The notes under the pieces: model-generated
Database searches by the model: none
What the model was told of the DNA's origin: nothing
What the model saw: only the letters and a program-made list of their open reading frames with translations
In this document: piece by piece, positions 24,208 through 35,278 of the stretch
Numbering within the stretch: the first letter of the stretch is position 1
Layout: each line of letters opens with the position of its first letter
From: a virus
DNA: 64,000 nucleotides
Virus record (IMG/VR): IMGVR_UViG_3300046501_000233
Span: 32,001 to 96,000 of that record
Strand: one strand, 5' to 3'
Made by a program: the position numbers and the translations under genes

Positions 24208-24613
24208 TGAAGGAGCCGCCGCGGCGCTTGATGTTCAGGTCGGTGTCACCCGTCCCGTCGCCATCAGTGTCCTGCGGCGGAAGGCCGAGGCCGACCTTGC
24301 CCTGGCTGATCTTGTCGAGCAGAGCGAGTGCATCCTCGTAGCGGACGCGCATTTCATCGGTCCGGCCGCCGCGCTGAAGGGCGATCTTGTAGACCGCAAT
24401 ATCGATCGCGCAGTTGCGGACGACTCCGGGGACTGCCGGGAGCGGCAGCGAATATTGGGCTGACAGATAGGCGTCGCAGATCTCGTCTGCGGAAGCCAAT
24501 CCACGATCGACAATCGCCGGGTCGGGGGTGCCGTCCCGGTCGTTGTCAGCCAAACGAACAAGGAGGTCTTCGCCGTAGAGATTGTCGATATCTTCCTTGG
24601 TCGCGTAGGGCAT
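24191..24613 (-). CDS. head-tail adaptor (Mu gp36 / DUF1320-like)
   Basis: YAT..D, A...CDAYL...Y.LPL..VP, DIA.Y, RYEDAL..L..I..GK..LG. Confidence 0.92.
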   Translation of the reverse strand: MPYATKEDIDNLYGEDLLVRLADNDRDGTPDPAIVDRGLASADEICDAYLSAQYSLPLPAVPGVVRNCAIDIAVYKIALQRGGRTDEMRVRYEDALALLDKISQGKVGLGLPPQDTDGDGTGDTDLNIKRRGGSFNASRA

Positions 24614-25017
24614 TACTTGTCCTTAGCCTTGTCGGCTTTCGCCTTTGCCTTCTTCGCAGCGGCGGCCTTTTCAGCAGCTTCCTTTTCGGTAGCAGCCTTC
24701 TCAGCAGCAGCCTTCTCAGCAGCAGCCTTTTCAGCAGCAGCCTTTTCAGCAGCTTCCTTCTCGGCAGCAGCTTTTTCAGCGGCTTCCTTTTCGGCAGCGG
24801 CAGCGATGGCAGTGTCGTCGGCGGGGTCAGAGGTTGACGTCGAGGCCGGGTTGTCAGCAGGCACCTTGGCCTCGGCGGCAACCACAGTCTCGTCGCCCTC
24901 GGCATAGTCCGGCAGCATGGCAGCGCGCTGGGCGCGGACTTCTTCGCTCACCAGCCGGCGGTTATTGCGCAGCTTGGCGGCGGCCTCACGGGCGCGGTAG
25001 CCCTTGGGGACGATCAT
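24613..25017 (-). CDS. Ala/Glu/Lys-rich low-complexity protein downstream of capsid gene
   Basis: GGAG RBS; (AEKAA/AEKEA)n repeats. Confidence 0.75.
   Translation of the reverse strand: MIVPKGYRAREAAAKLRNNRRLVSEEVRAQRAAMLPDYAEGDETVVAAEAKVPADNPASTSTSDPADDTAIAAAAEKEAAEKAAAEKEAAEKAAAEKAAAEKAAAEKAATEKEAAEKAAAAKKAKAKADKAKDK
24655..24800. repeat. 15-bp tandem repeat encoding AEKAA/AEKEA units
   Basis: About nine copies of GCAGCCTTYTCAGCA-like unit. Confidence 0.9.
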
Positions 25018-26104: not shown

Positions 26105-26131
26105 AAAAAGCCGCCCCCGAGGGAGCGGCTT
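26105..26131 (-). terminator. intrinsic terminator/attenuator between scaffold and capsid genes
   Basis: AGCCGC..GCGGCT plus TTTTT on - strand. Confidence 0.7.
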
Positions 26132-26157: not shown

Positions 26158-27042
26158 TTAGTCTTCGACGCCGGCTTCTGCCTTCAGGCGCTTGGCCAGT
26201 TCTGGTTTGGTGTTTTCGAGCAGCATCTGCTGCGTGAAGTTCCGGCTCTCTTCCTTCCAGGGGTTCTTTTCCTTGGAAGCAGGAGCGCCGTGGTTGGCCG
26301 GCTTGACGCCGATGCCGCGCTTGTCGTCGGGCTTGAACAGTCCAGCCCGCGTCTCGCGGATCTCACCAAGGAGATCTGCGACCGAAACTGGGGTGCCCAG
26401 GTGGTCCTTGATCCGGGGATTGCCGTTGGCATCGATCACGTCCACCTTGATCTGCCCATCGACCAACGAGGTCTTGATGGACTTGGTGGCGATCATCTCG
26501 ATGGCTTCGCGCGCATCATCCAGCGGATTGAGTTTTGCAAGTTCATCCTTGATGGCGTTGTCGCGCATCAGAGTCTGAAGCTGCCCCGTGAGGCTGCCGA
26601 TCGTCTTCTCCGCGCCGGTGACCTTCTGGGTCAGCTCGGTCTCGCGCAGAGTGAACTGCTGAGTGAGCTGGTCCTTGAGGGTGCCGAACTTGGTGTTGGC
26701 GATCGCTTCAGCTTCTTTCTCGGGATCGAGTGCTGACAGTCGTGCTGCAGTTTCCATGGCGGTGCGAGCCGCGTCCGGAGTGATGTCACCGAAGGCCGTA
26801 GCACGCTCGATGGCGGTGCGGGCGACGGTGGGATCCAGGCCTTCGAAAGGCTGGAGCTGCGCCTTCAAGACTGAAACGCTCTGGCGCTCGGCGCCGAGGG
26901 CGGTCTTGAGACCGGTGACATTGTCGAGTTCGAAGCCTTCGACCGGCGTTACGTTGACATAGAACTTCCCGTTCCGTTCGACGTAAAACCCGCGATGCGC
27001 TTCATCGACGGTGTTGAGATCAGTAACGACTGCTTTAAGCAT
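26158..27042 (-). CDS. capsid scaffolding protein
   Basis: MLKAVV..L..VDE..R.FY.E..GKF, V.GLK.AL..ER, coiled coil, NPW..E..N.TQQ..L...PELA.RLK.EAG; upstream of capsid. The track's 27390 start is probably overextended. Confidence 0.88.
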   Translation of the reverse strand: MLKAVVTDLNTVDEAHRGFYVERNGKFYVNVTPVEGFELDNVTGLKTALGAERQSVSVLKAQLQPFEGLDPTVARTAIERATAFGDITPDAARTAMETAARLSALDPEKEAEAIANTKFGTLKDQLTQQFTLRETELTQKVTGAEKTIGSLTGQLQTLMRDNAIKDELAKLNPLDDAREAIEMIATKSIKTSLVDGQIKVDVIDANGNPRIKDHLGTPVSVADLLGEIRETRAGLFKPDDKRGIGVKPANHGAPASKEKNPWKEESRNFTQQMLLENTKPELAKRLKAEAGVED

Positions 27043-27400
27043 ATCCATCCCGGAAATGCGGGGCATCCCGCCCCTCGTAGAGAAAAGACCTTCAGCATCC
27101 CGCCGAAGGTCCGGTGTCATCCCCGAGGTTCGGGGAATCGGTAGAGACAGCACTGATCGTTCCAAGGGCCATCCCGGCTCTCGGTTGGTTTGATCAGCGA
27201 TGTCGAATTGGTGCGTAGGGCCGGAGACGATCCAGCACCTACACGGTAGGTTCTCAGCGGCGGCGCGGGCGTGCGACGCGCTCTTTAGGCATCCCTGCTC
27301 GTCTTGGTGGAGTGCGAGCTGGGACCGCTGAAGTCGCGCTCGACTGGTGGCACCCAGGAGCGCGAAAAAGAGAGGGCCGCTTCGCCGCATCCCGCGGCAG
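27043..27400 (-). promoter_or_regulatory. structured 5' leader of scaffold gene with 7 GGGAUG motifs, mostly in hairpin loops
   Basis: CATCCC on + strand at 27046, 27064, 27096, 27118, 27170, 27290, 27388. Confidence 0.75.
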
Positions 27401-27405
27401 AAACG

Positions 27406-27437
27406 AAAAAGCCCGCCGCGAATGAACGGGGCGGGCT
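27406..27437 (-). terminator. intrinsic terminator
   Basis: AGCCCGCC..GGCGGGCT plus TTTTT. Confidence 0.75.
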
Positions 27438-27459
27438 GTCTTGGATCTTGGTGTTGCGC

Positions 27460-27771
27460 TTATGCAGCGCTGCGCAATGCCTCGGGCTCGATCACCGTGT
27501 ACTGGGTGAAGGTCTCGGGCTTGCAAAATTCTATGATGCCGTCCTCGTGGAGGAGGACGATGTCTCCTGCGATGCAGGAGAGGATGCCGAAGGGGGAGAG
27601 CGTCGAGAACCCGCCCTTGTTGTTGATTTGCAGCTCACCCGACTGGATGCGCTCGATCAACCACTGCGGCGGCGTGTCGTCAGCAATCTGACCCCAGAGA
27701 GGCAACTTGAAGGCTTGGACAATCGAAAGTCGTTCGAGCAGCTTCACGGGCACTCCATTTGCATTCTGCAT
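27460..27771 (-). CDS. hypothetical phage protein (start uncertain, possibly internal GTG)
   Basis: VQAF..P.W, T..G....AGD.V..DG...CKPETF...Y pattern of a common small phage family. Confidence 0.65.
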   Translation of the reverse strand: MQNANGVPVKLLERLSIVQAFKLPLWGQIADDTPPQWLIERIQSGELQINNKGGFSTLSPFGILSCIAGDIVLLHEDGIIEFCKPETFTQYTVIEPEALRSAA

Positions 27772-35202: not shown

Positions 35203-35278
35203 TGGCTGGGAAGGCAGGACTCGAACCTGCGACTCTCTGATTAACAATCAGGCGCTCTACCAACTGAGCTACAACCCA
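35203..35278 (-). tRNA. tRNA-Asn(GTT)
   Basis: 76-nt cloverleaf: TAGCTCAGTTGGTAGAGC D arm, loop TTGTTAA, GGTTCGAGTCC, encoded CCA; two U-U mismatches in acceptor stem. Confidence 0.93.

Follow-up and report, generated by a model that had tools for sequence, protein, structure and literature searches.

A conserved array of hairpins on the ribosome-binding site of a phage scaffold gene and its possible role as a translational operator

The window analysed here is a stretch of 64,000 nucleotides (nt), bases 32001-96000 of a complete phage genome (IMG/VR record IMGVR_UViG_3300046501_000233) that comprises 108,080 bp with 127-bp direct terminal repeats and 60% G+C. The nearest named relative of this window phage is Bradyrhizobium phage BDU-MI-1, with 70% nucleotide identity across the region of interest. 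The gene for the head scaffolding protein (scaffold) lies on the minus strand among other head genes (Table 1), and about 420 nt of non-coding sequence separate it from an upstream open reading frame (ORF) of 103 amino acids (aa). Within this sequence, positions 27039-27199 form a structured 5' leader of the scaffold messenger RNA (mRNA) that may well act as a translational operator; the element looks like an undescribed RNA switch that sets the amount of scaffold protein. The stoichiometry of scaffold to capsid protein decides whether phage heads assemble correctly. Work by Wyckoff and Casjens and by Casjens and Adams in 1985 is said to have placed the control of the phage P22 scaffold, the product of gene 8, at a post-transcriptional step coupled to assembly. 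P22, in which the scaffold represses its own translation, has to our knowledge been the only worked example of scaffold-synthesis control since 1985, and we know of no RNA operator defined for this autoregulation.

Hairpins in the leader of the scaffold gene

A preliminary description of the window had reported seven copies of GGGAUG in the leader. All seven are found exactly at the positions given there, on the minus strand between 27046 and 27393 (starts of CATCCC on the plus strand at 27046, 27064, 27096, 27118, 27170, 27290 and 27388), and their number lies far above expectation. The hexamer GGGATG occurs 34 and 36 times on the two strands of the whole genome. With 0.10 copies expected per 358 nt per strand, the Poisson probability of at least seven is 2.4e-11. 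Among 20,000 dinucleotide-preserving shuffles of the leader the maximum was four copies, reached once, and none of 3,000 shuffles contained any hexamer at seven copies. The 451-nt leader region also folds much better than its shuffled versions (z -5.3).

The four stems that had been listed are present, namely GCCGC/GCGGC in hairpin H1, GACCUUCGGC/GCUGAAGGUC in H5, GGGGC/GCCCC in H6 and GCC/GGC in H3. The statement that the copies lie mostly in hairpin loops holds for five of the seven, which form 5-nt loops closed by C-G (H1, H3, H5, H6 and H7), but not for copy 2 (27295-27290) and copy 4 (27123-27118), which are located within stems. Conservation is restricted to the copies in H3, H5, H6 and H7; in about 40 related phages of the Bradyrhizobium type these recur with the loop sequence GGGAY and with stems that covary. 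Copies 1, 2 and 4 are lineage-specific, extra copies gained by the window phage.

The core of the leader (27074-27039) is predicted to consist of two abutting hairpins, H6 and H7, each with a GNRA-like pentaloop (GGGA followed by a pyrimidine) closed by C-G. The last copy of the motif had been assigned to the ribosome-binding site. It does overlap this site and is at the same time the loop of a hairpin, UCC-GGGAU-GGA inside GCAU...AUGC, that pairs the start codon: the invariant GCAU directly after H6 pairs with AUGC, i.e. the start codon and one further base, which places AUG 27042-27040 opposite the invariant CAU 27058-27056. Folding energies are -8.0 kcal/mol for H7 alone and -18.5 kcal/mol for H6 and H7 together, and H7 is predicted in all close relatives and most distant ones. 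Nothing before the scaffold start resembles a Shine-Dalgarno sequence except the GGGA in the H7 loop; the ribosome must therefore use this GGGA, and has to open H7 to reach the AUG. As is typical of autogenous operators of the MS2, thrS or T4 gp43 type, both the Shine-Dalgarno sequence and the scaffold start codon fall within the structured element, and its identity element, the loop, is conserved on helices that covary.

The AUG contained in copy 7 itself is not the start; in two relatives it lies in another frame or has a stop codon after it. The scaffold frame is open upstream to ATG 27390, and translation of the leader as an N-terminal extension from this codon was the case that, according to the preliminary description, would have spoken against an operator. 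Such an extension is excluded. In the long ORF the match to phrog_206 sets in only at residue 117, the residue encoded by ATG 27042, and relatives fix the same start. The 116 codons upstream show no codon periodicity (GC by codon position.66/.57/.66 versus.64/.40/.74 in the scaffold gene), and in relatives the upstream frame closes after 0-137 codons and is interrupted by transfer RNA (tRNA) genes.

Conservation in related phages and in a second scaffold family

A sequence pattern spanning H6-H7 retrieved 25 relatives. To keep the argument from being circular, 35 + 73 relatives were collected with the scaffold protein only. Locus searches in viral contigs with a single protein returned nothing or the query alone, and alignment-based searches succeeded. 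In the close clade, whose scaffolds are 62-73% identical, H3, H5, H6 and H7 are always present with GGGAY loops, and their stems change by compensatory substitutions. RNAalifold analysis of 26 leaders found double changes in 10 of 33 pairs. The expectation that the loop sequence would be kept in the leaders of relatives and the stems would covary is thus borne out. Close-clade loops read GGGAY in 73 of 75 cases (the exceptions are one GGGAA and one GUGAU), and position 5 is never G. A G at this position would give a stronger Shine-Dalgarno sequence, yet it is avoided throughout the close clade.

The individual hairpins differ in how they are conserved. The H3 loop is kept as GGGAY with GGGAC predominating, and the H5 loop as GGGAY on a stem that covaries heavily, with up to seven double changes per pair. 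H6 is nearly invariant even at 30-47% scaffold identity, and its closing pair varies between C-G, U-A and U-G. The inner stem of H7 occurs in the compensatory variants UCCA/UGGA, CCC/GGG, AUCC/GGAU, CAC/GUG and UCUC/GAGA. In an alignment of H6-H7 from 13 diverse leaders 96% of the cells are paired, compared with 32-47% in slid controls, and all four inner pairs of H7 show compensatory changes. The GCAU/AUGC pairing survives insertions and deletions in seven leaders, and the two start-proximal loops lie 17-25 nt apart with a mode of 18. At the position of copy 4 relatives mostly carry GGGAUA, with the H4 pairs (108-126 to 114-120 of the alignment) kept in 26 of 26 leaders. H1 lies in a variable stretch where relatives have other sequence, and copy 1 is unique to the window phage.

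Among the relatives found by protein, no other pentaloop comes close to GGGAN in frequency within the last 100 nt of the leader. Counted with simple stem rules, GGGAN pentaloop hairpins occur in this interval in 25 of 25 leaders at 60% scaffold identity or more, in 19 of 35 at 28-59% and in 1 of 13 below 28%. Below about 35% the identity value often refers to no more than the N-terminal part of the scaffold. A leader from an A+T-rich marine contig contains GGGU-GGGAU-ACCC, and in some leaders two GGGAN hairpins precede a canonical GGAGGAG. The hairpins are absent from cultured Pseudomonas, Acinetobacter and Klebsiella phages at 25-30% identity.

The association with scaffold genes is also seen from the RNA side. 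The exact 17-mer of H6 has 66 matches in IMG/VR, 40 of which lie directly before a scaffold gene. The neighbouring genes vary, with portal, phrog_241 or an unassigned gene upstream and capsid genes of three PHROGs downstream, and the scaffold gene alone is constant. In the window phage, GGGAU pentaloop hairpins with stems of at least 4 bp number four, and three of them sit in the scaffold leader. With this near confinement to the leader, a regulator would have a single target. Generic GNGAN hairpins are scattered over the same genome at background level.

Six contigs carry an H6-like 17-mer in a different conserved context, apparently inside a 606-aa open frame that is unrelated to scaffold genes.

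One carrier of the H6 17-mer, L173, precedes a scaffold of another family, phrog_4866, and relatives of L173 carry Pfam PF06810. We scanned this second family by protein, using about 100 nt before the scaffold start in IMG/VR contigs from phages of about 60 kb. At least one GNGAN pentaloop hairpin is present in 66 of 68 distinct leaders and at least two in 63 of 68, compared with at least two in 13 of 68 control stretches inside genes of the same family. Their loops comprise GAGAU, GUGAU, GGGAU, GAGAG, GUGAC and further variants, and a C-G pair closes 128 of 166 of them. Leaders of this family hold 2-3 C-GNGAN-G hairpins. As a rule a hairpin comes first, followed by a Shine-Dalgarno sequence and then by a hairpin in which the start codon is formed by the loop A-U and the closing G, and these proteins therefore begin with Met-Arg. 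Judged from the sequences, the general motif is a GNRA-type tetraloop sequence (GNGA) with one extra base, closed by C-G, of which the GGGAY array of the window is the version of one lineage.

A candidate translational operator and its alternatives

The position on the ribosome-binding site with a paired AUG, the fixed loop on variable stems, its repetition and the lack of G at position 5 together point to a factor acting in trans that would recognise the loops and hold the structure closed. GNRA-like pentaloops in which a base is looped out typically serve as contact points for proteins (PMC12550061), and on balance we slightly favour that some protein binds the leader hairpins. Initiation would require the opening of H7, given that H7 is predicted to pair the start codon and to present the Shine-Dalgarno-like sequence in its loop. 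The protein, probably a dimer or multimer, would recognise the loops, clamp H6 and H7 shut and block the 30S subunit, and its binding would thereby repress scaffold translation. The upstream copies in H5, H3 and, in the window phage, H1 may add affinity or cooperativity. The preliminary description had proposed a multi-site translational operator; an RNA-level element of several hairpins on the scaffold ribosome-binding site is what we find, but seven sites overstated it, as four are conserved.

The scaffold gene is the only constant neighbour of the hairpins across two scaffold families, and the most likely binder is therefore unassembled scaffold protein. This identification, by association with scaffold genes and by the precedent of P22, is nevertheless tentative. 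It would tie scaffold synthesis to capsid assembly as in P22, where the scaffold N-terminus has been implicated in translational autoregulation (bioRxiv 10.1101/2022.12.13.520362). Similarly tentative is the wider proposal that scaffold proteins of at least two tailed-phage families control their own translation via shared tandem GNGA+N hairpins, closed by C-G, that hold the Shine-Dalgarno sequence and the start codon.

A search of the phage for known RNA-binding protein families found no binder, as CsrA, Hfq, ProQ/FinO, cold-shock domain and FlbT gave no match. Several observations weigh against an operator bound by the scaffold protein. An AlphaFold2 model of the scaffold (alignment of 30 sequences; predicted local distance difference test, pLDDT, 79) has no Foldseek match in the PDB at E <= 0.001 and, as modelled, shows no recognisable RNA-binding fold. 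H6 is identical in phages whose scaffolds are less than 50% identical, and L173, with its scaffold of the other family and an identical H6, lacks the conserved N-terminal domain. H6 is thus more conserved than the scaffold protein, so that a more conserved partner, or none, fits better. Many distant relatives show a normal GGAG in a hairpin loop, and plain display of the ribosome-binding site may be part of the design. The U-run of H5 and the U/A-rich segment before H6 suggest a role at the level of transcription as well. Finally, P22 gene 8 has a 13-nt spacer as its leader, without comparable hairpins, and its scaffold shows no sequence similarity to that of the window (BLASTP E 4.5).

Some of these points would be expected of an element that acts in cis without a dedicated binder. 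GNRA-type caps would present the Shine-Dalgarno sequence within a loop, adjust initiation through the pairing of the AUG and offer standby sites for the 30S subunit, and would also shield the scaffold mRNA from 5'-end-dependent decay once an upstream tRNA has been cut out. GGGA is able to pair with the anti-Shine-Dalgarno UCCU, in distant relatives a hairpin loop just ahead of the start presents a canonical GGAG or GGGAG, conservation of H6 beyond the scaffold protein is expected if the partner is the ribosome or none, and with a tRNA upstream in relatives processing is to be expected there. We regard a purely cis-acting element as rather unlikely, though the strongest of the alternatives, as it leaves unexplained the link of the design to scaffold genes only, the close clade's avoidance of G at position 5 of the loop and the retention of three or four copies of one loop; moreover, the loops GAGAU and GUGAU of the second family are not complementary to a single ribosomal RNA site. 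A role in transcription would take the form of a nut-like antitermination site, with H6 as a boxB-type hairpin behind a boxA-like segment and an N-like protein that, loaded onto RNA polymerase, would allow transcription past H5 and past the terminator-like hairpin separating the scaffold gene from the capsid gene. H6 has the 15-nt boxB geometry of a 5-bp stem and a GNRA-like pentaloop, and a pattern scan of the leader found no promoter-like site. H5 matches the pattern of an intrinsic terminator (27112-27086 followed by UUUUCU), a prediction from sequence with a U-run of only four U. Together with the terminator-like hairpins at 27437-27402 and 26130-26105, H5 (27112-27083) implies read-through or antitermination in the late operon. 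The segment before H6 is U/A-rich with UYAAC or AUCAC and reads YUUUUAUCACGA, UUUAACC or UUAACAA in relatives; it recalls the boxA consensus of nut sites and rrn leaders, a tentative likeness at 8 of 12 positions. We consider a nut-like site improbable. The hairpins lie 5-13 nt from the start codon and in the second family contain it, neither of which a nut site needs, and no arginine-rich small N-like protein was seen among the ORFs neighbouring the element.

Much less probable still is a CsrA/Rsm-type system, which the preliminary description had raised in the form of a phage-encoded CsrA-like binder. A CsrA homologue would bind the GGA-in-loop sites, and the part upstream of H5 would be a sponge RNA. 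The GGA in the GGGAY loops of H3, H5, H6 and H7, one of them on the Shine-Dalgarno sequence, would suit such a protein, as would the 18 nt between the last two sites, presumably the optimum for CsrA dual-site bridging. A search of the rest of the genome contradicts it: PF02599 has no match in the complete phage, nor in three genomes with prophage-like copies (two Bradyrhizobium, one Methylobacteriaceae) and 101 genomes of the genus Bradyrhizobium, in searches whose controls matched. Related leaders use GAGAU, GUGAU, GAGAG and GUGAC loops without a conserved GGA core, and the motif has a single target in the genome. We attach hardly any weight to the remaining alternatives, sites for a replication, packaging or transcription protein in a DNA-level repeat, or a translated extension from 27390. 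An open frame from 27390 is compatible with the extension, which fails on the codon composition and the broken, tRNA-interrupted frames described above. The DNA-level repeat could draw on a second GGGATG cluster (genome 2081-2171) that is iteron-like, but the iteron consensus GGGGATGTC differs from the leader motif. We rejected this explanation, as in the leader the stems differ and covary around a fixed loop and a binding site in duplex DNA would not tolerate freely covarying flanks.

The proposed operator can be compared with several known systems. With P22 gene 8 it shares the role of the regulated gene, a head scaffold gene between portal and capsid genes, and, if the model holds, post-transcriptional control coupled to assembly; in the window the RNA element is defined and the binder only proposed. 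The MS2/R17 coat operator on the replicase start and Escherichia coli thrS resemble it in that a hairpin contains the initiation region and the loop is the identity element on a stem that covaries. In thrS a homodimer binds two similar loops upstream of the start. The window differs from both in its GNRA-like pentaloops closed by C-G, in up to four or five copies, on a morphogenesis gene of a double-stranded DNA phage, and its operator is putative. CsrA/RsmA leaders (glgC, hag, pgaA) and sponge RNAs likewise have several sites with GGA loops, one site on the Shine-Dalgarno sequence and a last spacing of 18 nt, but differ in that neither the phage nor the 104 host-type genomes searched have CsrA, the GGA core is not required in related leaders and the element of the window has one target. 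Lambdoid boxB hairpins, to which N peptides bind, are phage regulatory RNAs of the same shape, 15 nt long, in which a 5-bp stem carries a GNRA-like pentaloop and one loop base is looped out (PMC12550061). In the window, by contrast, the loop has its extra base at the 3' end (GNGA+N) and is closed by C-G instead of U-A, the hairpin sits on the ribosome-binding site and no N-like protein was found in the neighbouring ORFs. Searches of Rfam matched only a tRNA (35206-35278) in the whole window at gathering scores, gave chance matches only for 26800-27700 at E up to 10 and returned nothing relevant for ten related leaders. Literature on GGGAU hairpins, scaffold translational repression and BDU-MI-1 yielded no description of this element. 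The operator type itself is known, and we give the operator explanation about an even chance; the leader would then be a protein-operator-type leader built on a new and widespread RNA motif specific to phage scaffold genes.

H6-H7 offers a short RNA element of about 36 nt for direct tests: its identity nucleotides are clear, its stems covary in nature, and the two scaffold families supply more than 100 natural variants. Should a protein bind it, assembly-coupled translational control would be opened to direct experiment, and annotators would have a means to spot scaffold genes, whose sequences are notoriously difficult to recognise. Even without a bound protein, H6-H7 would remain a conserved, structured ribosome-binding site in which the start codon is paired, useful for the understanding and engineering of late-gene expression in phages. 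An operator shared by two families, if true, would be the first mapped RNA target of assembly-coupled scaffold autoregulation and a widespread, unrecorded class of phage cis-regulatory RNA.

Neighbouring elements and genes

Table 1. Features of the scaffold locus (window coordinates; copies are numbered as GGGAUG copies along the mRNA)
Feature	Position	Strand	Remarks
Large terminase gene	31376-29913	minus	
Portal gene	29894-28326	minus	
103-aa ORF, function unassigned	27460..27771	minus	ORF list; not a constant neighbour of the hairpin element
Intrinsic-terminator-like hairpin with U-run	27402..27437	minus	ends upstream gene; pattern scan
H1, UGCCGC-GGGAU-GCGGCG pentaloop hairpin	27383..27399	minus	copy 1; -10.2 kcal/mol
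Element A, structured RNA of ~110 nt	27254..27364	minus	separate from hairpin leader; RNAalifold
tRNA remnant, 7-bp acceptor stem and T-arm minihelix ending ACCA	27209..27244	minus	alignment
H3, long hairpin, pentaloop GGGAU 27175-27171	27151..27199	minus	copy 3; inner part -11.4 kcal/mol
H4, UCCCCG/CGGGGA hairpin	27120..27136	minus	copy 4 in 3' stem strand
H5, 11-bp terminator-like hairpin, pentaloop GGGAU 27101-27097	27083..27112	minus	copy 5; short U-run; -18.2 kcal/mol, z -4.6
Spacer before H6, 12 nt, U-rich, UUUUCUCUACGA	27075-27086	minus	
H6, GGGGC-GGGAU-GCCCC, 15-nt hairpin	27060..27074	minus	copy 6
H7, GCAU.UCC-GGGAU-GGA.AUGC	27039..27059	minus	copy 7 in loop; adjoins H6, no linker
Head scaffolding protein gene, 294 aa	26158..27042	minus	phrog_206, E 3.6e-35
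Terminator-like hairpin with U-run	26105..26130	minus	between scaffold and major capsid genes; read from sequence
Major capsid protein gene	26062-25085	minus	

The leader is preceded by a further, highly conserved structured RNA, element A. RNAalifold analysis of 31 distinct sequences gave a three-helix core and a variable hairpin, with compensatory changes in 12 of 32 pairs. Copy 2 of the motif lies within this element and its GGG pairs with CCC at about 27323-27321; pair 104-136 of the alignment is U-A in 24 sequences and C-G in five, so that the G/A difference in copy 2 is compensated on the other strand. Element A has no Rfam match. It is always found upstream of a scaffold leader, sometimes 600-1300 nt away, and is often directly followed by tRNA genes. 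It may act as a small RNA in its own right, as an antitermination RNA of the put type or as a leader linked to tRNAs. In most relatives its P3 loop (alignment columns 113-126; about 27313-27305 in the window) reads CAUCCC, the complement of GGGAUG. A kissing contact of this loop with the leader hairpins was considered and dropped, as the loop varies and is CACUCC in the window.

Where the window has a tRNA remnant, many relatives carry a whole tRNA-Asn or other tRNAs, up to three in number, and in BDU-MI-1 a tRNA-Asn is annotated at this site. ARAGORN detected no tRNA at 27209..27244 in the window. The window phage has a tRNA-Asn of its own at 35203-35278.

The hairpin that ends the upstream gene (27402..27437) is kept in relatives with a covarying stem. 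PHROG and Pfam searches with the 103-aa ORF returned no match, and its place is occupied by other genes in relatives.

The only other cluster of GGGATG in the genome lies outside the window, on the plus strand at genome positions 2081-2171 (window coordinate about -29900). There, GGGGATGTC-N-GAAATTC is present as four direct repeats, within an open frame of helix-turn-helix or replication-initiator-like type. From their sequence these repeats look like origin iterons and distinct from the leader motif.

Downstream of the capsid gene, a 134-aa protein (24613-25017, minus strand) has a long run of EKAAA-type repeats, a lysine-rich tail and a weak HC2 histone-like Pfam match. A role as a decoration protein or as an internal protein of the head is possible.

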